Part shown: positions 3,440 to 64,000 of the stretch, piece by piece | How the letters are laid out: every line of letters begins with the position of its first letter | Position numbering within the stretch: the first letter of the stretch is position 1 | The notes under the pieces: model-generated | What the model saw: only the letters and a program-made list of their open reading frames with translations | Told to the model about the DNA's origin: nothing | The model's database searches: none | Program-made: the position numbers and the translations under genes | Origin: a virus | Lineage: Duplodnaviria > Caudoviricetes | Reading direction: 5' to 3' (one strand) | DNA length: 64,000 bases | IMG/VR virus record: IMGVR_UViG_3300033121_002078 | Coordinates: 30,623-94,622 of that record

Positions 3440-4642
3440 CTAAGCTAGATGTATAATAGGGTCTTTTTTCACAACTTCCTTTATCATATCTACAAATTTT
3501 TGTAGAAAATTCTTATTACTCAATTTGTTCGCAATCTTAATACAACTAGTTCTAAATGTGTTTATTGCATCAGAATTAAGTGATAGTGCCGTTTTTAGGG
3601 CAGTTATAGCTGAACCTCTAATTGGCATATAAAAAATCTTGTTATTTCCAACATAAACAACCTGCACATCCATTCCGGTATTTGCCAATATAGGCAGATC
3701 GACTTTTAAGGAATTTATAACCTCGACATCGCACAAGCTTTTTGGATAAACGGGGACACATCCACAAGCTAATGCCTCAAAAATGCTTATTGAGGTTGAA
3801 GAACAAATAGATCCCGTTAAAAACACATCTGAATCATTTAATTTTTTGGCATACTCTTGATCGGACAATCCAGAAGATTGTGAAATTGGAACAGTTGGCA
3901 ACTTGGTATAGGCTGTATTAATAAACTGTGGAAGATCGTACAATCCATCCGTTTCTGTGTGTAAATACAAACTTGTACCTGCCTGAACTCTTGTGCCAGA
4001 CCCTGTACCGGCCACAAAATTTGCTATTAATGGTGGGCTGTCTTTAAAATTGTTTGAGCAACGCGAAAAGATTCTTTTTGCAATTGACTTATTGGTCTGT
4101 TTGAAAACATCCAAATCGCATCCAACATAACAATAATCAGAAGTTACACTTGATACTTGTTGGAAATTGGTTAACGTATATGCATTAGTACACAAGCAGC
4201 CATCTATCTTTTTTGCCAAAGTTTTGTAATCTGTGCTAAATGTTGCACTATTGTTTGCTAATACAGCAAACCACTTAAAACTGGATGTTGCAAAAGTCAA
4301 AATGGCATCCATAAAATAAAAATCTTCTATTGGTCCTATAGTCACAACCACATCGGGTTGCAATGCTTTAAGATATTCATAAATCTGTATCGTTGATGAT
4401 TTCGGGTCTGATGAATATGGAAAAACGGGCACTTTATATTCTTTATCTGTTGTAAAATTGTAAAAATAGGTTTTGTTATTATCACTTGTTTGTTCTGGAA
4501 AATACAAAAACGAATCATGACTGCTTACTAGAGATGCACACTGATAATCTGCAGAACTAGCCAAACACTTAATGATATAACTGTGCAGTCTTCCCATTGA
4601 ATTTAGAACATAAGGACTAGTACCAATTGTTATTATTCGCAT
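3440..4642 (-). CDS. Glycosyltransferase, GT-B/GT4-like
   Basis: QPDVVVT, GCDLDVFK, LNDSDVFL...SISIFEALACGCVPV. Confidence 0.75.
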   Translation of the reverse strand: MRIITIGTSPYVLNSMGRLHSYIIKCLASSADYQCASLVSSHDSFLYFPEQTSDNNKTYFYNFTTDKEYKVPVFPYSSDPKSSTIQIYEYLKALQPDVVVTIGPIEDFYFMDAILTFATSSFKWFAVLANNSATFSTDYKTLAKKIDGCLCTNAYTLTNFQQVSSVTSDYCYVGCDLDVFKQTNKSIAKRIFSRCSNNFKDSPPLIANFVAGTGSGTRVQAGTSLYLHTETDGLYDLPQFINTAYTKLPTVPISQSSGLSDQEYAKKLNDSDVFLTGSICSSTSISIFEALACGCVPVYPKSLCDVEVINSLKVDLPILANTGMDVQVVYVGNNKIFYMPIRGSAITALKTALSLNSDAINTFRTSCIKIANKLSNKNFLQKFVDMIKEVVKKDPIIHLA

Positions 4643-6296
4643 TTTTTATCCTTTTAAACCAGGTTATGGCTTTTTTATAAATATCTAATTCACCTGAAGT
4701 TAGCATATTTTTTGCTATTTCTTGTGCCTGTTCTTTCGAAAGATTTGGGTTTTCGTCTTGTACTTCTCTGATACGTTCTTTGATTACTTCGATATATCCA
4801 ATTTGCCCTTTTGGTGGTGCTGCTGGCAATCCTATTAAGTCCATGATTTCTTTGCCATTAAGCAGGTCTTGTGATTTTGCCATATTTTGAGTAGGGGATA
4901 ATAATTTAATTCTGTCAATGTTTTGTCGATAAGGATTGGTTACAGAAACATCTGGTGTTTTGCTTTTGCTCATAGCATCTGCCATAGCATGTATATACTG
5001 AAAAACCCAATTGGGATTCTTTCTTACATATCTTCTTAGAGTTTTGTCTGATATATCAGGTCCATCTTCTTCTATGTGACTATGAGGACGCATATGACCT
5101 GCTATTAGCTCTCCGATTGATTGGGTTTCTTCATTATTTAATTGAAGTGCTTTTGAAAAAATCTTCCAAAAATCAGCACTTGATTGTTCGTGTGGAATTG
5201 CAGATGGATTATTTGGGTCTCCTGAATAACCACGTGTACCATCTGGCTTGTTTTTGTGAGAACGTGGGTCTAATTTTCCTAAATCATGAAATAGAGCAGC
5301 AAAATTCATTTTTGCTCTTTCTTCATCTGTAAGCCCATACTCCTTCGACAAATTATTTACATTCTTAAGTACTTCAAGTGTATGTTCTATAACTGTCAAT
5401 TGGTGCCACTTGTTTCTTTGATCCATGTTTAACGGATTAAAACTTGCTGGCAAATTAAGCATCTTACCAAGCAATCCGGTTTCATACATTACTTGAAGTG
5501 CTTTTTCTGGCTGTGTACCGCTCATCAGTTTTCTAAATTCTTCTGCAGTACGCTCCACAACTATGCCTTCTGGATCGTTTGCATTTATTATTTTTCTTGT
5601 TAATTGGTGTTGTACTCCAGGGTCTTTAATTGCTTCTATAACTTCGGGAGATATTGTGGAATTTGCATATCGTGAATAAAAACGAAAAACTCGTAAAACT
5701 CTCAACGGATCATCTTGAAATGTTTTGATTGGATCTAATGGAGTTCTAAGTGTCATGCTCTTAAGGTCACTAAGACCTTTGCCTGTGTGGTCTTCAACTT
5801 GTTTAGTGTTTATGTTGTAAAATAAGGCATTTAATGTCAGATCTCTTCTGTAAGCATCCTCTTGCGGAGTTGCCATTGTAACAATGGGGTTCCTGTTCCC
5901 TGGTGTGTAAACCTCTTTTCTTAGGCTTAGCAAATCAACCTTTTGCCCATAAATATTTAAAAATGACACTTCAAGATTCTTTATTTGTTCTGGTCTGGCA
6001 TCAGTAGTAGTAATTCTGCCGACTGCCCCTACATTGTTTTGTTTATCATACAGAGAAATAAATTCACCAAATTGTTTTCCGGTCATATTGTCAACAGAAA
6101 CATCCAAATCTTTTGATTGCTTATTAAGAATTTTATCTCTAACCCATCCACCGCAAATACGAGCTGTTGTTTCTGAGTATTTTCCGTTTGACAGTTGTGG
6201 GATAGACTTACACACTTGCAAAATTAAAGAGGTTATTTTTTCTTCTAACTCGTCAAGAGGAATATTGATACTTGAAAAAATCCACATCATTTTCAC
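4617..6296 (-). CDS. cca: tRNA nucleotidyltransferase (CCA-adding/poly(A) polymerase family) with HD domain
   Basis: CGGWVRD, DLD, EDAYRRDLTLNAL, DDPLRVLR; HD domain ALFHDLGK. Confidence 0.88.
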   Translation of the reverse strand: MKMMWIFSSINIPLDELEEKITSLILQVCKSIPQLSNGKYSETTARICGGWVRDKILNKQSKDLDVSVDNMTGKQFGEFISLYDKQNNVGAVGRITTTDARPEQIKNLEVSFLNIYGQKVDLLSLRKEVYTPGNRNPIVTMATPQEDAYRRDLTLNALFYNINTKQVEDHTGKGLSDLKSMTLRTPLDPIKTFQDDPLRVLRVFRFYSRYANSTISPEVIEAIKDPGVQHQLTRKIINANDPEGIVVERTAEEFRKLMSGTQPEKALQVMYETGLLGKMLNLPASFNPLNMDQRNKWHQLTVIEHTLEVLKNVNNLSKEYGLTDEERAKMNFAALFHDLGKLDPRSHKNKPDGTRGYSGDPNNPSAIPHEQSSADFWKIFSKALQLNNEETQSIGELIAGHMRPHSHIEEDGPDISDKTLRRYVRKNPNWVFQYIHAMADAMSKSKTPDVSVTNPYRQNIDRIKLLSPTQNMAKSQDLLNGKEIMDLIGLPAAPPKGQIGYIEVIKERIREVQDENPNLSKEQAQEIAKNMLTSGELDIYKKAITWFKRIKNANNNNWY

Positions 6297-27444: not shown

Positions 27445-30400
27445 CTACTCATCTTTAAAATATTCGAATATATCATCAGGTAATTCATCATTATAAAGGT
27501 CAATTAAATTCCCACCATAAGAGGTCTTGTAAATACACTCACCTGATGCCTTTTTGGAGTTGCCACTGTTAGCTAGTTTCTTAATATAAGAAGCTGTAAC
27601 ATTTTTAACAGCATCAGGAGCATCCTCTACGGTTTGAGAGTCGAATCTTATCACTGTCCAACCACGCATAGCTAAATCATAATCACGCTGTTTATCGTGC
27701 TGTAATTGCTCTGGTATCTGGTGAAACTGCCCGTCTACTTCAAAATCCAACTTTAATTTAGGAAATGCAAAGTCCAACTTATAAGCAGGCCCACCACGTG
27801 GATTTTGAACAGGATACTGGAAGAAATAAGGAGTGTTAACCCCCAATCCGTTCACTACATTATCAAGTATTTGTCGATAAGATTGCTCTAACTCTGTAAA
27901 TCTCACTTGACCGTATCGAACAGGCTCAACTTCTTTTTGTAATGACTTGGCTTTGCTCTTTTTAATCACTTTCATCGGAGAACCTGGCATACCCGCAGAT
28001 GCCATTGCACCGCCGCCACCCGGAGCACCACCGCCACCACCAGGAGCACCACCGCCAGCATCACCACCCGGCATTCCACCGGGTCCACCCATTTCAGGAG
28101 CTGCACCAGGTCCGCCCGCTGCAGCAGGACCACCACCAGCCATACCACCACCAGGCATGCCACCTGGACCACCACCACCGCCACCAAGTTGTGCTCCTTG
28201 TGGGCCAGCTACTGCCATTTCATAGCGTGTACGTTCTACTTCTTGGCTATAATTTAATTCCATTTCCTCGCATAGTGTCTGCGTAGAACATACCTGCTTA
28301 TCGTGTAGCTGCATTATCTGCTGCAGTCTTTGTGTACGATCACGAAGTCTTAAATCGTTCCATTTAATTTCAGGGGTGTAATAAATGGGTCGGCCATACT
28401 CTTTAGACTTTTCTTTGTCTATAAACCCCTTCATTTGAGCTATAGGTTCAAAAACTCTCTTGATGACAAAGTTAGAAAGCATTGTCTGGAAGTTCTCTAA
28501 TCTTCTGATAAGAGTTTCCACGCCTACCTGAGCACTATTGCCTTGGACAGCAATCAACCCATTTCTCATAGTGACAAACAGTCCATGTGGCACTGTAAAA
28601 CAGTATACTTTTCCAGTGTAAGCTACTCTGCTAATAACACCGTTGTTTTTCAGTTCGCTTCTTGAGCTATCTCTTGATTCGATCCCTGGGTTAACTCCTT
28701 TACGCCCCTTGGACAAATAAACCACCCATTGCTGATGCCTTGTATGATATTCAACGCCACGTTTATTTTTGTAAACCTTATCTGCAGATTCTTTGAATGG
28801 TTTTTTAGTTAAAGTAACAACATATCCACATTTAAATCCAATTTCTGCCACATCCATAGAAAGTTGTTCACTACTGGTGTGATATGCAAGGTAATCCTTC
28901 TGTTCTTTACCGCATGTTTTAACACTTCCGTCACCAAGAATCATGCTGTGCAACAACAATTTAAGTTGCTCAACAGGAAGATTTTTAATCCATGCAGGCA
29001 AACGCTTTACGTATGAATGTCTACCATAATACAATTCAAAGTGTTGAGCTAATGCTGGCTTATATATATGAATTGTATCATTAAGAGTGTTAGTGTGATA
29101 AGCAGAGAAAACCCTGTCACAAACTGCTACAATTTGTTTTCTGGCTTTTCCATTCGGGCTTTGATGAATATTTACAGTTATGGTTTCATTTTTTCTGTTT
29201 TTTCTTTTTTTATTTGACAAACTGCCTTCAGAGACATAAAAACCAGCCAATTCACAATATTCGTTAATAGGAATAGTTAAATTATCAGATATTTTAACTT
29301 CTGGCACATATTCACCGACGAAATCATCAACAACCCCTATAACTTTAGCACGGGGCTTTACATCTTTTGCCTCAACAAATCTAAATCCAATTTGATTACG
29401 TGGCTGTACATACATTCTGTGATTAGGAGTAACAAGAATATCTATCTTTTCAGTTTTAAACTGTACCATTTCCCCATTATAATCGTAAATGTGTTTTTGA
29501 ATATATGGGTGATACTCAATAGACTTTGTTTCGGGATTAACGCAAGCTATCTTGTCATTTTCATCTATTTCTGTATACTGTTTAAACCCACTATCAGTTA
29601 ATGTCAGAGTATCTTCTGAATGACAATTGTAACTTGTAGCTTCACCGTTAAGCAATGCCTGATTCAACATAAGACCATCAAGCAATTCTTTGTCTATATG
29701 TTCAAGCTCTTGAGATACTTGCAGTATCTTGCCCTGTGCACCGACAAAATCGATATCAACAAGGTGATGAGTTACAAGGCACACATTTGGCTCATTTGCA
29801 ATACTTGCAAGCATTTGTTGTGCTTCTGCAATATCCGCTGGACCAGCAGGACGCTGATCGCTTCCAACCTTGACCAGTTTAATTGGAACAATCAATCTTT
29901 CTGCAACTAACCACTGTGCAGACATAAGTTTTGTCTTGTAAGCTAAAGTTTGAAAAAGTGGACGAATCATACTCGTACCATAAACACCATAATCTACGGC
30001 CATGTGTTTCATATGTACAAGAGTTCTTGGAGAAAGACGAATAGGTTTCTTCTGCAAAATCTGCTGTTTAACCTGATCTGACAACTGGTTATATATCTCT
30101 GCAGGTTGTTTAGTCTGCACTATCTTTATAATGTCCTCATCAGGAATCATCACAATAACTGCTTCATCTGCCCAAGGTGGTTTTACTACTTCAATCCAAT
30201 CAGGATTGAGAATTACTAATTTGTTGATATCGCCATTTTTGTGATTGCAACGTTCACCAGAGTCTGGATCTATTGAAGTGCCACCACATTTTTCGCAAGA
30301 CATATCAACATGGATAAACACATCTCCAATCATGTGATATTCTAACGAAATCTGTTTCAGCTTATTCATGATTTCGAGACGCTCAACTTCATACTCGAAG

Positions 30401-30783
30401 TGTCTTAACATCTTTCTGCTGGCTTGTGGATGTGGCCACACTAATTTAAAACCATTAATACAAAAATCAGAATACCATTTGATACCAGCAAACACTTTTG
30501 GCTCATTAAGAAAGAAGTATCTCGACCACATATAAACTTCTCTGCGTCGAGCCGCTATTTGCCAGTTTATATTTGTATTTATTGGACTAAAAAATTGTGG
30601 GTTTGTAACTATAGTATCTGGTGACTGAGCAAATTGTGCATACTTATTATGAAAAGGAGCAATAGCAAACGATCCATTAATATCACCTGAAGCCAACTTC
30701 TGCTGATGCAACTCTTTAGGAGGCAGAGCATTGCCCATAACGACATTAGTAGCATCTGCTTTTTTGATTGTTTTTTTAGCCAT
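27445..30783 (-). CDS. Portal protein with LAGLIDADG intein, Gly-rich linker and C-terminal DUF559/Vsr-like endonuclease domain
   Basis: Portal-type motifs (EYHMIGDVF, ILNPDWIEV, YGTSMIRP, PIKLVKVG); C-terminal YKLDFAFP...EVDGQFH...DKQRD...GWTVIRF. Confidence 0.8.
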   Translation of the reverse strand: MAKKTIKKADATNVVMGNALPPKELHQQKLASGDINGSFAIAPFHNKYAQFAQSPDTIVTNPQFFSPINTNINWQIAARRREVYMWSRYFFLNEPKVFAGIKWYSDFCINGFKLVWPHPQASRKMLRHFEYEVERLEIMNKLKQISLEYHMIGDVFIHVDMSCEKCGGTSIDPDSGERCNHKNGDINKLVILNPDWIEVVKPPWADEAVIVMIPDEDIIKIVQTKQPAEIYNQLSDQVKQQILQKKPIRLSPRTLVHMKHMAVDYGVYGTSMIRPLFQTLAYKTKLMSAQWLVAERLIVPIKLVKVGSDQRPAGPADIAEAQQMLASIANEPNVCLVTHHLVDIDFVGAQGKILQVSQELEHIDKELLDGLMLNQALLNGEATSYNCHSEDTLTLTDSGFKQYTEIDENDKIACVNPETKSIEYHPYIQKHIYDYNGEMVQFKTEKIDILVTPNHRMYVQPRNQIGFRFVEAKDVKPRAKVIGVVDDFVGEYVPEVKISDNLTIPINEYCELAGFYVSEGSLSNKKRKNRKNETITVNIHQSPNGKARKQIVAVCDRVFSAYHTNTLNDTIHIYKPALAQHFELYYGRHSYVKRLPAWIKNLPVEQLKLLLHSMILGDGSVKTCGKEQKDYLAYHTSSEQLSMDVAEIGFKCGYVVTLTKKPFKESADKVYKNKRGVEYHTRHQQWVVYLSKGRKGVNPGIESRDSSRSELKNNGVISRVAYTGKVYCFTVPHGLFVTMRNGLIAVQGNSAQVGVETLIRRLENFQTMLSNFVIKRVFEPIAQMKGFIDKEKSKEYGRPIYYTPEIKWNDLRLRDRTQRLQQIMQLHDKQVCSTQTLCEEMELNYSQEVERTRYEMAVAGPQGAQLGGGGGGPGGMPGGGMAGGGPAAAGGPGAAPEMGGPGGMPGGDAGGGAPGGGGGAPGGGGAMASAGMPGSPMKVIKKSKAKSLQKEVEPVRYGQVRFTELEQSYRQILDNVVNGLGVNTPYFFQYPVQNPRGGPAYKLDFAFPKLKLDFEVDGQFHQIPEQLQHDKQRDYDLAMRGWTVIRFDSQTVEDAPDAVKNVTASYIKKLANSGNSKKASGECIYKTSYGGNLIDLYNDELPDDIFEYFKDE
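28537..29625 (-). mobile_element. Intein (363 aa) with LAGLIDADG homing endonuclease, in the portal gene
   Basis: N-terminal CHSEDT, block B VTPNHRM, LAGFYVSEGS/MILGDGS, C-terminal VYCFTVP...VQGN followed by Ser. Confidence 0.9.
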
Positions 30784-53943: not shown

Positions 53944-56900
53944 TCAACCACATTTACTGTAATGACAAGCTGGACATTTAACGCAACTAGACTGCTTAAT
54001 CATTTGCTCCGTTTTGCCCTCTTTGGCACATTCTGGACATTCCATTCCAGTTGAAACAGCAACACCACTTTCTAAGTATTTGGTTTTAAATAAACGTCCA
54101 ACCACCTTTGAAAAACTATTGAGGTGTTCATTGCTGTTATCTATTTGTTGTACTATAAATTCTGCAGGGATTCTATGTCTTAATTCAAGAGAAAAACGAC
54201 GTGTTTCCAGACCAATTTTTGGATCGATATGATTTTCTTCATCAATTATGTTCTGAATTAGTACGTTACCATCCTCATCTGTAAGTGTATAGTTTCTCTT
54301 TTTATTTTTAACTACTCTTCCAGACTTGGGCAATTCAACTCTTCCGTTTACGGCAAATAATTCATATGGCTTTTCATCGATCTTTCCAATAATAATGTGC
54401 CAATCAATTCCATCTGCTTTTGTTTTGTGAATATCACAATTCACTGTCTTTGGACGTTTTACTGCAGCATATTCACTGCTGGTTTTGTCAGAATTTAAAA
54501 CTTGTACTGTTTTAGAACCATCTCTGTAGATAGTAATTCCCTTGCAATTATTTTTCCATGCAAACATATATGCTGACACAACATCTTCGATTGTAGCAGA
54601 ATTACTCATGTTTATTGTTTTGCTAACTCCGCTATCAATATACTTCTGAAAAACTGCCTGCATCTTAACGTGGCTTTCCCAACTTACCACACGCTGTGGA
54701 TCTTTATCAATTGCACATTTAAACCACGGTTTATCACTATCAGGGTGGGGAATTTCATACTGCCCTGTATTATCGTTTCTAAAGACTGTTGAACTAAATA
54801 TTGGTTCTATCGAACTGCTACATCCAGCAATTAAAGAAATGGAACCAGTCGGTGCAATAGTTAATAGTGTCACTGATCTGCGATAATTTAACTCTTTAAA
54901 ATTGCACGAATCTGGGGTGCCTCTTTCCTCTGCAAGTTGAACTGACATTTTGTTGGCATGTCTATAAAAGAATTCTGCTATTTTTTCTGCAAGCTCAAAA
55001 GATTTTTCTGATCCATATTCTATCTGCATCTTCAGAAACAAATCAGCCAAACCCATAATCCCTAAACCAATGGGGCGATTCTTCTTTGCCCACTCTTCAA
55101 ATTCTATAGATGGATAAGTGTTATTGCTTACAACATCATCCAAGAATTTGACTGCAGCACAAATACATTTTTTAAGTCTTGCCCAGTCAACGTTTTCAAA
55201 ATCGCTAGGATTATCAGTTTTTAACACAAAAAACTTAGCTACATCAACACTTCCAAGGTTGCAAACTCCAAAAGGTGGCAAAGGTTGTTCCCCGCAATTT
55301 TTGTAAACAACTGTCCTATAACGACTTACAGAAAGTTTATTGTGTTTTGTGTCTGGTTTGCTGTTGTGGCTACTTAAAATGCACAAATTATGATGTTCAT
55401 CTACTGTAATATTATAGACATCAGCAAAATCTTTCAGAATTTCAACAGACACTACTTTGTGGTTGACAGAGCAATTTTCGCACAATTTATTGGCAAGATT
55501 GTTCAATGCCTCAAATCCGCCGTTTCTAATTAATGATTGTGTGGAGCATATTTCTGTCATATCTTTTTTGGTTGGACCCCTTCCATTCTTAATAGTCCAA
55601 TCAACGATTGCTCCTGCAATCATCTTCTGAGACATTTTTGAGTTAGGAGTTAATGAGGCAAATATTCCTCGTTCAACTAATTTATCGTTCAAATTTTGAA
55701 AATTGCCAAATCGTTTACGGATTAATTCTCTGCTACTCACTGCATCTTCAAAATTTTCCCAAGTAATTACAGTTGGATATACACCAGTTTTTTTTACAAA
55801 ATTGATAGCACTTATAATTATATCTTCATCAGAAATATCTTGCTGATTCCCGCACTCAACAGAACAATACCTAAATTTCTCATAGGATTTTATTGAAAAC
55901 TCTTTTCCGCAGTATTCACACTTTTTGACAACTACAGGAGACTTTAAGGAGTCATATAATCCTGCTTCCCAGTGTTTCTTTTTGTCGTTTGATATTTTGT
56001 TTTTCAGTTTGTCATCAAATGCATTTCTAGTGTTTACACTTATTTTTTTTCTATACTCTTTGTCTGCACATCGTTCTTTGGTTTTTTGTCCAATCTTATA
56101 AAGTGTTTCTTTTTTATGTCTACGACCATACATCCTATTTTTCTCACCCGCAGTTGATTTAGACATATTATCATGGTATCGCTGCTTTTCTTCTGCGGTT
56201 GCATTTGGATACCAATGAGTCATTGGATTATTAAACTGTCGATGATAAATAGAGTGTTCTTCAAATGTCATTTTTTGTAAATTATTAATATCATTGTTAA
56301 GCCCATTGAAATCTTTGTGATGAATAAGCTCTCCATCATTGATGGCATCTTTTAAAAACTCATATATCATTTTATGTTCTGACTTTGTTGGCTTGCCATC
56401 TCCATGAATCACCCCTAAATATTTACTTCTGTGCGAAATGTATTCAAACTTGGTCATGGACATCACAGAATCTCCAACCAACAAATTTTTTACTTCTACA
56501 TATTGCCCATTTCTTAGTAGTATTCTGTGATCTGGTGTAGTTATAACGCTTCCACCATCATCAAAGTTGACTTTGCAAAGATTTACATTTTCTCTTGTCT
56601 TGCGGGGATTCCTTCCCCACCGAATGTTGATATCTCCTGTTTTTGGATTGCAACAATAAACAGGAACATCCTTGCCTTCTTCTGCTAACTGTTTGATGGA
56701 AACAAAGTTTCGTCCATCAGCCACGGCAACCATTGAATCTCCATGAAAACACGGGTTCGTGGCATCTATCCATTGTTTGCTAAGTTTGTAAGGTCCATCG
56801 TTTATTCTGTCTTCAAACAGAAGACCGGGATCACCATTATTCCATGCGTTTTCTGCTATAGAATAAAACAATTCTTTGGCTTTTACGGTTGAATATGTTT

Positions 56901-57636
56901 TCCCATTAAACTTTAAATCCCAATTTTCGTCATTTTCCACTGCACGCATAAACTCATCATTTACGAAAACACTTATATTGAAATTGGATATAAATTTATC
57001 CAACAAAACATTTAGATCACGAGACTTAGTTAACAACTCAAGATTTCGTCCAATATCTTCTTTAAGAAGAGTTTTAAGAGCACGTTCATGTCTTTTGCAC
57101 TTAATAAAGTTTAAAACATCTGGATGACTAACATGAATAGTTCCCATGTTTGCCATACCACGAATACCAGATTGTGTAATGCTGGACATTGCCTCGCTGA
57201 CCATACGCATTGCTTCTATTGGACCGCAGGCTTTAGCATGAGATGAACCGAACACCTTGTCGCCTTCTGGACGAATTTTCGTAAACGAAACTCCACATCC
57301 TCCTGCAGCACGAGCTACATCTCCAAAACGTTCGATATTTTTTACAATGTCCTTCCATGTATCTTCTGGAGCTTTTGTTACATAACACGCAGATAAACCG
57401 CCACGAGAATTAGCACGACCAGCATTAACCAGACATGGTGTATTTGGCAAAAATTCTGTTTTCAAGATAATGTCATATATTTCTTTTTTGTATCCTTCGC
57501 TTTCGTCTTTACAAACAAAATCAACAACTCTGTGAGCAAGTCCTGCCCAATCTTCTACAAAATTTCCAGCGTCATCTTTTTGATAATATCTTTTTTTGAG
57601 AACGTTTTCACCAACAGGATTTATCGAGTACGACAT
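53944..57636 (-). CDS. nrdJ: Class II (adenosylcobalamin-dependent) ribonucleotide reductase with intein
   Basis: FLPNTPCLVNAG, LSACY, TNP-[intein]-CGEQ, CNLGS, TIAPTGS, C-terminal CPACHYSKCG; no small subunit nearby. Confidence 0.9.
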   Translation of the reverse strand: MSYSINPVGENVLKKRYYQKDDAGNFVEDWAGLAHRVVDFVCKDESEGYKKEIYDIILKTEFLPNTPCLVNAGRANSRGGLSACYVTKAPEDTWKDIVKNIERFGDVARAAGGCGVSFTKIRPEGDKVFGSSHAKACGPIEAMRMVSEAMSSITQSGIRGMANMGTIHVSHPDVLNFIKCKRHERALKTLLKEDIGRNLELLTKSRDLNVLLDKFISNFNISVFVNDEFMRAVENDENWDLKFNGKTYSTVKAKELFYSIAENAWNNGDPGLLFEDRINDGPYKLSKQWIDATNPCFHGDSMVAVADGRNFVSIKQLAEEGKDVPVYCCNPKTGDINIRWGRNPRKTRENVNLCKVNFDDGGSVITTPDHRILLRNGQYVEVKNLLVGDSVMSMTKFEYISHRSKYLGVIHGDGKPTKSEHKMIYEFLKDAINDGELIHHKDFNGLNNDINNLQKMTFEEHSIYHRQFNNPMTHWYPNATAEEKQRYHDNMSKSTAGEKNRMYGRRHKKETLYKIGQKTKERCADKEYRKKISVNTRNAFDDKLKNKISNDKKKHWEAGLYDSLKSPVVVKKCEYCGKEFSIKSYEKFRYCSVECGNQQDISDEDIIISAINFVKKTGVYPTVITWENFEDAVSSRELIRKRFGNFQNLNDKLVERGIFASLTPNSKMSQKMIAGAIVDWTIKNGRGPTKKDMTEICSTQSLIRNGGFEALNNLANKLCENCSVNHKVVSVEILKDFADVYNITVDEHHNLCILSSHNSKPDTKHNKLSVSRYRTVVYKNCGEQPLPPFGVCNLGSVDVAKFFVLKTDNPSDFENVDWARLKKCICAAVKFLDDVVSNNTYPSIEFEEWAKKNRPIGLGIMGLADLFLKMQIEYGSEKSFELAEKIAEFFYRHANKMSVQLAEERGTPDSCNFKELNYRRSVTLLTIAPTGSISLIAGCSSSIEPIFSSTVFRNDNTGQYEIPHPDSDKPWFKCAIDKDPQRVVSWESHVKMQAVFQKYIDSGVSKTINMSNSATIEDVVSAYMFAWKNNCKGITIYRDGSKTVQVLNSDKTSSEYAAVKRPKTVNCDIHKTKADGIDWHIIIGKIDEKPYELFAVNGRVELPKSGRVVKNKKRNYTLTDEDGNVLIQNIIDEENHIDPKIGLETRRFSLELRHRIPAEFIVQQIDNSNEHLNSFSKVVGRLFKTKYLESGVAVSTGMECPECAKEGKTEQMIKQSSCVKCPACHYSKCG
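55297..56751 (-). mobile_element. Intein (485 aa) with HNH endonuclease at the RNR active-site NP/C
   Basis: CFHGDS start, TPDHR block B, HHKDFNGLNNDINNL HNH, DVYNITVDEHHN...YKN followed by Cys. Confidence 0.9.
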
Positions 57637-61728: not shown

Positions 61729-61756
61729 TAAATGTCTCCTCCTTAATAACTGAATA

Positions 61757-61786
61757 TATATTGAACATTTAATTTAGAATTCCTTT
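61757..61786 (-). promoter_or_regulatory. Putative phage sigma promoter AAAGGA-N17-CAATAT
   Basis: Exact 17-nt spacing. Confidence 0.55.
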
Positions 61787-61810
61787 CTTTATTTTGAAAA
61801 ATTATTGAAC

Positions 61811-61858
61811 AAAAAAAACCCGCCCTTAACTTCCTTTCGGAAATTGGTGGACGGGTTT
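61811..61858 (-). terminator. Terminator closing the large ncRNA
   Basis: Minus strand AAACCCG...TTCC-GAAA-GGAA...CGGG-T8. Confidence 0.7.
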
Positions 61859-62745
61859 ATAACAACTGTTTTAGTTGTCACCGCGAAACAAAGATTTTAC
61901 TCCTTGTCAGAAGCAATAACAACCTGATTTTGTCCCACCATGTTTTGCAGTTTACCAGACAAGACAATTGTTTAGTTTCGAGCCTTTAGGACTCGACCGC
62001 ATTACAACTTGCTGGTTAGCATTGCTGGAGGATTGTAATACTCATTGTTAAGTCGGTCTTCTAGTGTTACCCGAATACAACTTAATATTTGCAGTACAAC
62101 CTCATCCGGCAAATCCCATGTTTTTCATTTCGCTACATGGGTATAGCGTCGTTTCTAAGGCTTTTTTTCAGTTTCCAGCCTAGACTCATGTAATCTATTC
62201 TTAAACCTTTCGGTCTATTTCTCCCAATGAAGGGAGGGGATTTTGCAAGCAATCTACCATGCCTGTAAGTATCCCGATTACTCCGTGGACGTTTCATATT
62301 ACTATGAAATATTTAGTAGTTTTTCTTAATACTATTTCTAGTACTTGTACTATTTCTTGCGATTTAGTACTATGGCCTACTCATCCACTTCCGATGTCCG
62401 TCTGCGAGTTTCCATTCATCAATCCCTGATAAAACTTTCGCTTCATCATTTCCTGACAAATGTTTAGTTAATTAGTTGAGTTTCCTCAATGTGTTAACCT
62501 CAACACCCATATGCGGTTTTGGTGCTTGTGTTCCGTGGTAGCCGTTTCAGGATGCAGCCGTTACCGACTTCTACCAGCGGTTTGCCCGCAGATCTGAATT
62601 TATTACGTCAGTGACTTGGTTTTACCTTCGTCATTCTGACAACCTTAACCTCTCGATTAAGGGTTGGGACGTTGTTCCGTATTTACTTTTTAAAGAGCTT
62701 CGGTTGACTGCTTCGTCTCGCGTTGTCGCGTCCGTCGCTGTCAAC
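61811..62745 (-). ncRNA. Large (~935 nt) structured non-coding RNA, family unassigned
   Basis: No credible ORF; many GNRA-capped hairpins, all on the minus strand; own promoter and terminator. Confidence 0.7.
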
Positions 62746-62751
62746 ACGAGT

Positions 62752-62780
62752 AATATAGCTCCGGTCTGCCTGGGATGCAA
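62752..62780 (-). promoter_or_regulatory. Sigma70-type promoter TTGCAT-N17-TATATT for the ncRNA
   Basis: -35 at 62775-62780, -10 at 62752-62757. Confidence 0.65.
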
Positions 62781-62859
62781 GGCGTTTTTGCCAAAAAAAA
62801 GAGATTTTTTTTAGACGGATTTCCGACAGGATTTTTAGTTCAAAACGCCCTTTCAAAAC

Positions 62860-62888
62860 AAGGAATTGTTCTTTTTTTTGGGCATAAT
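62860..62888 (+). promoter_or_regulatory. Putative phage sigma promoter AAGGA-N17-GCATAAT
   Basis: Exact 17-nt spacing, upstream of the 62916 gene. Confidence 0.5.
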
Positions 62889-62915
62889 ATTGGTCACTAT
62901 TAAAGGTGTATAACA

Positions 62916-64000
62916 ATGAATTATGTAGGTGATTTTCTAGCCAGTTCTGTTGTCAGAATCATGTGGAATACCAAAGCCTCAACAGGTGCAAGCATTACGC
63001 GAGCTGTAAACGGAACCATAAAAATATACAAGGATAACTCTACGACTGAAAGGACTTCCTCATCTGGCATTACTGACACTGAAGACTTTGACAGCAACAC
63101 TGGCGTACACCACCTAAACATTGATACATCTGACAATGCTGATGCCGGATTCTATGCTGCAGGGCATGATTATTTTGCAGTATTAACTGGAGCAACTATC
63201 GACGGACAAACCGTAAACGAAAATATAGGCTCTTTTTCAATTGAAAACAGAAACATCAAAGCCAACTTAACACAAATTGATGGACTAGCAACAAGCGGAA
63301 ATAATGCGACCCTTTATTTAAAAGCCCTAAACATTACCAACAGTGCTAATACTGCCGTCACCATTACATCTGGTGGAGCTGGATATGTAGGAGTAGATAT
63401 TGAAGGTGGCGGAAATGGCACAGGCTTAAGAGTAAGAGGTGGTAGTGGAAACTCAAGCGGATTTGAATGTATTGGATATGGTACAGGCAGTGGAATGGTT
63501 TCGTATTGTGATGTTGGTACTGGGCATGGTATAAACGCATATGGTGGCGATGGCGGAGGAAACGGAATAAAAGTAGAAAGCGGAATCAGAATCAATCATA
63601 ATAGTGATACTGGTGTAGCCATTACTGGAGGAGGTGTTGGCAACTCTGGAGTTGATATCACTGGAAGCGGAAGCGGGACCGGAATGAGACTATTGGGCGG
63701 TGGAAACGGAAGCGGGTTGGAATGTATTGGACTTGGAACTGGCAGTGGCATTAGTGCTTTCTGCGACGTTGGGACTGGACCAGGGATAACCGCTCATGGT
63801 GGAGATAATGGTGGCAACGGAGTAGATATAACAAACGGTTTAACAATTGACAGTGAAATACCAGTAGTTAATTTATCATCTGCAGGATTAGATGATGTAG
63901 CAGTAGAAAGCGGAGTAAATGCCCGTCAAGCACTATCCGTAATTGCTTCTGTACTTTCTGGAGTATTAAGCGGAGCCTCTGGCACCAGCATTACTATAAA
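62916..64000 (+). CDS. Gly-rich tail fibre/spike-like protein, 3'-truncated (absent from the ORF track)
   Basis: ATG 62916 (MNYVGDFLASSVVRIMWNT...) appears open to the window end; duplicated GxECIGxGTGSG...CDVGTG units. Confidence 0.7.
   Translation, partial: MNYVGDFLASSVVRIMWNTKASTGASITRAVNGTIKIYKDNSTTERTSSSGITDTEDFDSNTGVHHLNIDTSDNADAGFYAAGHDYFAVLTGATIDGQTVNENIGSFSIENRNIKANLTQIDGLATSGNNATLYLKALNITNSANTAVTITSGGAGYVGVDIEGGGNGTGLRVRGGSGNSSGFECIGYGTGSGMVSYCDVGTGHGINAYGGDGGGNGIKVESGIRINHNSDTGVAITGGGVGNSGVDITGSGSGTGMRLLGGGNGSGLECIGLGTGSGISAFCDVGTGPGITAHGGDNGGNGVDITNGLTIDSEIPVVNLSSAGLDDVAVESGVNARQALSVIASVLSGVLSGASGTSITI

Follow-up and report, generated by a model that had tools for sequence, protein, structure and literature searches.

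A probable gene for a large structured noncoding RNA in an uncultured phage, with distant tandem relatives in a second phage

The locus and its features

The 64,000-nucleotide (nt) stretch of phage DNA analyzed here (the window) corresponds to bases 30623-94622 of the 94.6-kb IMG/VR record IMGVR_UViG_3300033121_002078 and carries, at 62746-61813 on its minus strand, what is probably an independent gene for a highly structured noncoding RNA (ncRNA) of ~935 nt. The RNA lies within window 61729-62915 (1187 nt), the largest stretch without an open reading frame (ORF) of at least 90 amino acids (aa) in the whole record. An earlier, sequence-only reading of this DNA had singled out an ORF-free stretch of ~1 kb here, and the gene call for an independent assembly of the same phage (L011) agrees in leaving the region empty. 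Pfam searches with ten stop-free frames of the region gave nothing credible. Genes for proteins of 185, 238, and 331 aa follow downstream on the same strand. The features of the RNA gene, in transcript order, are listed below; "invariant" refers to the three family members described in later sections.

62752..62780 (-): putative sigma-70-type promoter read from the sequence, with a -35 box TTGCAT (62780-62775), a 17-nt spacer, and a -10 box TATATT (62757-62752)
61813..62746 (-): the RNA, ~934 nt, with its presumed 5' end ~6 nt past the -10 box and its 3' end in the U tract
62703..62745 (-): 5' hairpin whose internal loop is conserved in sequence (invariant CGAGAC, 62720-62715), with a pair probability of 0.87-0.89, present in 3/3 members
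62664..62670 (-): invariant GUCCCAA, the 5' strand of a long-range closing helix with UGGGAC at 61937-61932 (predicted pair probability 0.89)
62643..62662 (-): hairpin of 8 base pairs (bp) capped by GAGA
62401..62592 (-): domain A, a four-way junction whose hairpins are capped by GUAA, GAAA, and GAAA and which includes a 13-nt loop containing invariant CCGCA (62516-62512)
62285..62388 (-): variable domain made up of three hairpins rich in AU (GCAA, GAAA, and GUAA loops), closed by GUGGA/UCCAC
62101..62291 (-): conserved core, with helix GUAAUC/GAUUAC, GGG/CCC, three hairpins, the invariant junction UAGAAACGACG (62157-62147), and UGGGAUU (62118-62112)
61939..62120 (-): 3' domain formed by a pair of long, irregular hairpins, in which GCGGU (62000-61996) and CUGCA (61950-61946) are invariant
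61873..61924 (-): long GUAAAA-loop hairpin enclosed by the outer closing helix (pair probability 0.91-0.98)
61811..61858 (-): intrinsic terminator with a 10-bp GC-rich outer stem, an inner GAAA hairpin, and a U8 tail
61759..61786 (-): promoter-like AAAGGA-N17-CAATA, outside the RNA, between the terminator and the start codon (61728) of the 185-aa gene, which it would serve

The boundaries proposed in the sequence-only reading (TTGCAT-N17-TATATT and a U-tailed hairpin) are present at 62780-62752 and 61858-61811, respectively, and have equivalents around both homologous copies. The pattern TTGCAT-N17-TATATT has a single exact match in the window, and AAAGGA-N17-CAATA has three, compared with 0.5 expected (2 of 100 shuffles reach three).

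Two repeats were also seen around the ends of the gene. A 10-nt inverted repeat, GGGCGTTTTG (62850-62841) / CAAAAACGCC (62790-62781), lies immediately next to the -35 box of the RNA gene and could represent an insulating hairpin or an operator in a divergent control region. An imperfect 27-nt direct repeat (70% identity) has one copy spanning the foot of the terminator stem, close to the 3' end (61850-61876), and the other upstream of the promoter (62814-62840); it may be an insertion trace or a product of chance.

Strand-specific folding and GNRA hairpins

Over 950 nt, the minus strand folds with a minimum free energy (MFE) of -300.8 kcal/mol (z score -10.4 against shuffled sequences), compared with -251.7 kcal/mol (z score -4.9) for the plus strand, a difference indicating that the earlier assignment of the RNA to the minus strand was correct. 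Most helices in the predicted fold have pair probabilities above 0.9, and the structure is closed by long-range helices. Hairpins with GNRA loops and stems of at least five pairs number eight on the minus strand and zero on the plus strand; the background is a mean of 0.31 (maximum 3) across 386 windows, each of 950 nt, taken elsewhere in the genome and a mean of 0.29 (maximum 3) in 1000 dinucleotide shuffles. All seven of the minus-strand GNRA hairpins listed in the sequence-only reading were recovered in place, and an eighth was added, as follows:

62662-62643 (-): GAGA hairpin
62569-62556 (-): GUAA hairpin, the eighth, absent from the earlier list
62489-62476 (-): GAAA hairpin
62448-62427 (-): GAAA hairpin
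62345-62328 (-): GAAA hairpin
62309-62292 (-): GUAA hairpin
62217-62202 (-): GAAA hairpin
61845-61828 (-): GAAA hairpin, inside the terminator

Distant relatives in a second phage lineage

Single-sequence covariance models (CMs) of three domains (R1, R2, and R3) were built from the predicted fold. Model R1, which represents domain A alone (window 62592-62401), matches a Logan metagenome contig (L003) over its full length, with 39.7 bits, an E value of 1e-8 to 1e-10, and many compensated pairs; the contig had been included because the downstream 185-aa protein has a 41% homolog encoded on it. Global alignment of the window RNA with this relative extends over the whole length, from the promoter through the terminator. 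On a longer contig (L111), nhmmer reveals a second copy directly downstream of the first (E 4e-94), and the tandem copies occupy L111:5480-7568 on the minus strand. Copies 1 and 2 are 71% identical to one another, and each is 48-49% identical to the window RNA. Their lengths of 0.98-1.03 kb give the family a span of 0.93-1.03 kb. A profile made from the two copies alone and searched against the 94.6-kb record has its best match at window 62752-62510 (-) (E 1.7e-6), followed by a second match at 62282-62111 (-) that is collinear with the first. Since R1 finds the relative and the two-copy profile finds the window locus, the homology holds in both directions. The gathering of homologs proposed in the sequence-only reading has thus yielded two distant tandem copies in another phage, connected to the window RNA by reciprocal matches.

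Searches in other collections did not extend the family. Comparison of the RNA and its relatives with 50,697 GenBank phage records by blastn showed no similarity, and in none of the contigs around homologs of the 185-aa protein (L003-L010, L113-L115, and L261-L264) or of the upstream protein (L002) does the RNA adjoin that gene. "Pseudo-protein" searches with the stop-free frames of the RNA found no relatives among viral, metagenome, and genome contigs, and searches of 50-80 IMG/VR records from the same terminase clade with the DNA, R1, and R2 gave chance matches only (one R2 match that was examined lies inside an ORF). The pattern CTTAGAAACGACG-N20-50-TGGGATT had 0 matches.

Several candidates were rejected. 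The looser pattern TAGAAACGACG-N20-50-TGGGATT had 25 viral and more than 120 genome matches, none of which proved to be a relative by nhmmer or, among the 100 loci tested with it, by R1. An identical 57-nt span, TAGAAACGACG-N39-TGGGATT, occurs in eleven IMG/VR contigs (L237, L238, L241, L244, L245, L247, L248, L249, L251, L255, and L256); these are not relatives of the RNA by nhmmer or R1, and the span is probably some other conserved element. An ORF-poor gap of ~1 kb with strong hairpins upstream of a 185-aa homolog (L007:5005-5945) has no strand asymmetry (z scores -4.7 and -5.4) and no similarity to the RNA, and it is not a member.

Shared secondary structure and compensatory changes

Both relatives fold more stably in the sense than in the antisense orientation (z scores of -8.5 versus -3.1 for copy 1 and -5.9 versus -3.9 for copy 2). 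RNAalifold, applied to a sequence-only MAFFT alignment of the three members, gives -138.3 kcal/mol; column shuffles reach -76.9 +/- 7.9, and the antisense alignment reaches -120. The best-aligned part is the core (alignment A10, window 62291-62101), in which there are 35 consensus pairs and 96.2% of cells are paired. Eleven of these 35 pairs change on both sides, compared with 3.7 +/- 1.5 in shuffles (0 of 500 as high), and shifting the 3' partners by 1-3 columns leaves only 0-1 such pairs.

At the level of individual helices, stems swap sequence while position and loop type are kept. The core helix GUAAUC/GAUUAC of the window is represented by GCACGC/GCGUGU and GCAUGC/GCAUGU in the relatives, and this comparison corrects the MFE prediction, as GAUUAC (62195-62190) pairs with GUAAUC (62280-62275) rather than with GUAAU (62606-62602). 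The stem of the GAGA hairpin reads CCUUAAUC/GGUUAAGG in the window, CUCAAGUC/GGCUUGAG in copy 1, and CUCAGAUC/GGUCUGAG in copy 2; both sides change and the loop stays GNRA. In the 3' domain, where the window can be aligned with its relatives less securely, the hairpin UCGAGUC/GGCUCGA has covarying counterparts in UCGGC/GCCGA and UGGGCG/CGCCCA. The counterparts of the 61873-61924 hairpin have different stems and A-rich loops in both relatives. The long-range closing helix provides no covariation for or against its pairing, because both of its strands are invariant in the three members. Further invariant sequence lies in unpaired or junction blocks (GUCCCAA, CCGCA in the 13-nt loop, CGGGAUA, UAGAAACGACG, UGGGAUU, GCGGU, CUGCA, and GGGAC). 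A secondary structure is therefore common to the three members and is kept by compensatory changes, with the limited power of three sequences. The central claim of the sequence-only reading, that the locus is a structured RNA gene, is accordingly sustained by the strand-specific fold and GNRA enrichment, the lack of a conserved ORF or protein remnant, and homologs with compensatory changes.

The variable domain behaves differently from this scaffold. Its closing helix is kept, as (G)UGGA/UCCA(C) in the window and (C)UGGA/UCCA(G) in both relatives, and in its interior other hairpins stand in the relatives. The replacement of the AU-rich domain indicates that the family consists of a conserved scaffold and a variable insert. 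One hairpin of this domain, UUUCAUA-GUAA-UAUGAAA (62309-62292), has 14-16 nt in common with the CRISPR-repeat hairpin in two genomes (G031 and G034), a likeness that would fit a decoy directed through a repeat-like hairpin against the CRISPR systems of the host or of rival phages (i.e., something similar to an RNA anti-CRISPR). However, such a match is expected by chance, because its E value is ~0.04 per genome and 50 genomes were searched; the sequences flanking the repeat are unmatched, and the hairpin is absent from both relatives, all of which makes a decoy of this kind very improbable.

The CRISPR arrays in question belong to huge-phage records of the same terminase clade (L096, G031:C1:3645-6660; L097, G034) and consist of at least 25 units at 66-nt spacing with the 36-nt repeat GTTGTAATCCACTCTCATATTACTATGAGAGACATC.

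A tiny family, and no transcript seen for it, would fit non-functional spacer or decayed coding DNA with hairpins formed by chance. The statistics of the fold and of the GNRA loops, the compensatory changes at ~48% identity, and the lack of protein remnants leave this explanation with almost no probability. Variation within the phage population also counts against it. Near-identical DNA is present in one wastewater metagenome run and in one further run, and the wastewater variant is ~1% divergent in the RNA region, compared with 8.5% of positions (mostly third codon positions) in the adjoining divergent 391-aa gene at 63116-64000. Since divergence over the RNA and the downstream genes together is ~1-2%, the 8.5% in the 391-aa gene points to mosaic recombination at that gene.

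A probable independent transcription unit

The transcription signals recur at each copy of the RNA. Both relatives are preceded at the equivalent place by TTGCAA-N16-(TGg)TATACT, which includes a TG-extended -10 box, such that all three copies have TTGCA(T/A), a 16-17 nt spacer, and TATA(T/C)T upstream; all three end with a strong hairpin followed by a U tract. The genes around the copies are not conserved. On L111, the RNA pair follows an unrelated 260-aa gene, the nearest called gene beyond it is on the opposite strand inside copy 2 (read as spurious), and the same-strand genes called after that are also unrelated to those of the window. The 185-aa protein (whose AlphaFold model has a beta-sandwich core and a mean predicted local distance difference test score of 55) is the only protein common to the two loci.

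These arrangements bear on the possibility that the RNA is a long cis-acting 5' leader, similar to an attenuator or riboswitch, that controls the downstream genes for the 185-aa, 238-aa, and 331-aa proteins. The RNA is on the same strand as those genes and ends ~85 nt from the 185-aa start, and the 185-aa family is the sole protein link between the two RNA-bearing phages. However, the 3' end of the RNA is a strong terminator with a U8 tail, and the 185-aa gene has a promoter-like site of its own beyond it. In L111, the RNA pair is 5 kb from the 185-aa homolog, in tandem, with its own promoters and terminators, and is followed by unrelated genes. Moreover, in five other lineages that encode the 185-aa protein, the RNA was not found in the readable flanking or upstream DNA (~0.3 to 6 kb per contig). 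A leader is thus improbable, and because the neighbors differ between the phages, the RNA is likely a trans-acting gene product. The sequence-only reading had called the gene free-standing, a description that agrees with the differing neighbors and with tandem copies that each have a promoter and terminator.

A hidden protein gene is not indicated either. Gene callers placed ORFs of 133 aa and 134 aa on the strand opposite the RNAs of the relatives; conservation between the copies is lacking, and a collection of 5.8 billion proteins yielded no homologs (as a search handle, the ORF found only itself). Because of this, and because the two ORFs have only a 30-aa stretch in common, at shifted positions, they are regarded as spurious. 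The boundaries of the RNA, its differing neighbors, and the spurious nature of these ORFs together argue against a leader, an intron, and a hidden protein gene.

Comparison with known large RNAs

Only a handful of bacterial and phage ncRNAs exceed 500 nt, the best known of which, GOLLD, ROOL, and OLE, have recently been reported to form RNA-only assemblies that were not anticipated. Rfam 15 was scanned with the whole window at the gathering threshold and with the RNA locus at E<=10, following the cmscan comparison suggested in the sequence-only reading; no family reached the gathering threshold in the window (150 bits for GOLLD, RF02032; 99.1 bits for ROOL, RF03087), and matches to the locus at E<=10 were at chance level only. 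Neither relative matches an Rfam family, and no match to the RNA was found in the literature searched. In dedicated searches of the whole 94.6-kb record, the GOLLD model had no match at E<=10 (13 first-look candidates scored, 0 kept) and neither did the ROOL model; the ROOL negative is weaker than the GOLLD negative, because the ROOL control matched in no control genome.

GOLLD RNAs are borne by phages and prophages and are stand-alone, with many members longer than 800 nt and with a conserved and a variable part, and ROOL is a phage-encoded large structured RNA with many tertiary-contact loops that is thought to be independent of a protein partner; GOLLD forms a 14-mer cage and ROOL an 8-mer cage, neither with a known function (PMC12286853). 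The window RNA is like GOLLD in being phage-borne, stand-alone, very large, and ornate and in combining conserved and variable parts, and like ROOL in being phage-encoded, large, and structured. It differs from GOLLD in having no CM match at E<=10 and no transfer RNA (tRNA) neighbor, in the somewhat greater length of its family (0.93-1.03 kb), and in the spread of its conserved blocks along the RNA, whereas those of GOLLD are in the 3' half. A tRNA neighbor is frequent in GOLLD, not obligatory. Compared with ROOL, the window RNA lacks a CM match and a nearby tRNA island and is ~1.6 times the length of the 574-position ROOL model.

The sequence-only reading had suggested either a divergent GOLLD or ROOL member or a new class. 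The latter suggestion stands and the former is unsupported, as scans of the RNA and of its relatives at E<=10 returned chance matches only. In general kind (phage-borne, 0.6-0.9 kb or more, with many GNRA loops and its own transcription unit; PMC12286853), the window RNA could pass for a highly divergent GOLLD or ROOL, but the Rfam scans, the dedicated searches, the unmatched relatives, and the lack of an adjoining tRNA make such membership highly unlikely.

OLE is chromosomal in extremophilic and anaerobic Bacillota and acts as a ribonucleoprotein with OapA, OapB, OapC, and bS21 (PMC12054373). The window RNA resembles OLE (RF01071), an ornate bacterial ncRNA of ~600 nt, in its conserved multi-domain fold, and it is unlike OLE in being phage-borne, without a CM match and without a conserved protein neighbor.

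Introns without ORFs require separate consideration, as a self-splicing intron of group I or II that lacks an ORF, or a different kind of mobile ribozyme element, could account for an element found in two phages that otherwise share almost nothing. In size and GNRA richness, the window RNA fits ORF-less group II introns, which are 0.6-1 kb and rich in GNRA tetraloops and long-range contacts. A search with group II models (clan CL00102, RF00029) gave, on the locus, only a match to group-II-D1D4-3 at chance level (13.1 bits, E 8.6), and group I (RF00028) had no match at E<=10; no intron family appears even at E<=1. Unlike these introns, the window RNA has no match to domain V/VI or D1-D4 beyond chance, no flanking exons, and no interrupted ORF; instead, it is flanked by a divergent promoter region upstream and a terminator at the 3' end, and every copy is provided with a promoter. 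Inspection by eye turned up no hairpin resembling domain V with its 2-nt bulge. An intron or related mobile element is consequently a quite improbable explanation.

Interpretation

The evidence from folding, homology, and gene arrangement supports a real conserved RNA gene with high confidence. The full reading, in which window 62746-61813 (-) is an independent gene for a ~935-nt highly structured ncRNA and the first member of an uncatalogued family of ornate phage RNAs, has a probability of about 0.8. Judged from its sequence, this would be a new family of a known kind (large ornate phage ncRNA) that is somewhat larger than GOLLD.

A number of points weigh against this reading. The family consists of three members from two phage lineages, two of which are 71% identical, and the covariation statistics consequently rest on few independent events. 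The alignment between the window RNA and its relatives is ~48% identical, is uncertain outside the core and domain A, and is shaky in the 5' and 3' domains. The relatives were missed by models R2 and R3, because the domains that these represent are too divergent or have been replaced. The promoter match alone is not significant, and the ends of the transcript are placed from consensus motifs rather than mapped. None of the sequencing runs on record as RNA contains the RNA stretch; one run guessed to be RNA contains a 151-nt piece only (61988-62134, with two changes and one insertion, one of the changes converting the predicted G-U pair 62092/62040 to G-C) and nothing over the neighboring genes that were compared, which is too weak to count. 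No tRNA adjoins the RNA at any of the three copies, unlike at many GOLLD and ROOL loci, and inspection by eye of the hairpin loops aligned across the three members revealed no palindromic kissing loops.

A working model for the RNA can be proposed. The host sigma-70 RNA polymerase would make the RNA as its own transcript, which would fold into a closed, multi-domain body with its ends tied together by the long-range GUCCCA/UGGGAC helix. The eight GNRA loops and several A-rich loops would dock into helices and compact the RNA, which may then act in trans during infection. The favored, and still tentative, form for this activity is a compact particle or scaffold like those of ROOL and GOLLD, which are phage RNAs comparable in size and form cages; it could consist of RNA only, perhaps as an oligomer, or include a bound protein. 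By this analogy such a role is possible, with odds well below even. Remaining odds go to a ribozyme, a decoy or sponge for host defenses, a protein scaffold, and functions not yet imagined. A more specific and somewhat more doubtful proposal is that the family is a new class of giant (0.93-1.03 kb) phage RNA, without relation to GOLLD and ROOL, that adopts the form of a compact particle, that either assembles by itself into a higher-order complex of RNA only or is a new large ribozyme, and that works in trans and is arranged in tandem in one lineage.

A further unrelated family longer than GOLLD would widen the set of natural large RNA folds and would provide another case for asking why phages spend a kilobase on an ncRNA. 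Its transcription unit is well defined, and a conserved core is combined with a variable domain. The sequences offer concrete substrates for cryo-electron microscopy, and the tandem pair in the second phage represents a natural experiment on dosage or hetero-assembly.

The phage and other observations

The record is 46% complete according to CheckV, indicating a phage of ~200 kb. Its phage genes include those for a terminase, a portal protein, a tail tube protein, and HSP20, and its terminase clade is a large group of uncultured big phages (40-61% identity, contigs up to 0.5 Mb). A 559-aa enzyme of the CCA-adding/poly(A)-polymerase family with an HD domain is encoded at window 4617-6296 (-). 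The 64-kb window contains no tRNAs, and the 94.6-kb record contains a single tRNA-Met, ~80 kb from the RNA locus.

Inserted sequences were seen in other genes of the window. The ribonucleotide reductase (53944-57636, -) is split by an intein with an HNH domain, and residues 383-491 of the 1112-aa portal protein (27445-30783, -) match a thymidylate-synthase PHROG, which suggests an insert there. In a relative by terminase (52% identity; L110:5374-9564), a 550-aa Ro60/TROVE-vWA protein is encoded, with an RlaP-family nucleotidyltransferase two genes further; a 231-nt divergent gap adjoins the Ro60 gene and could contain a Y-RNA-like gene.

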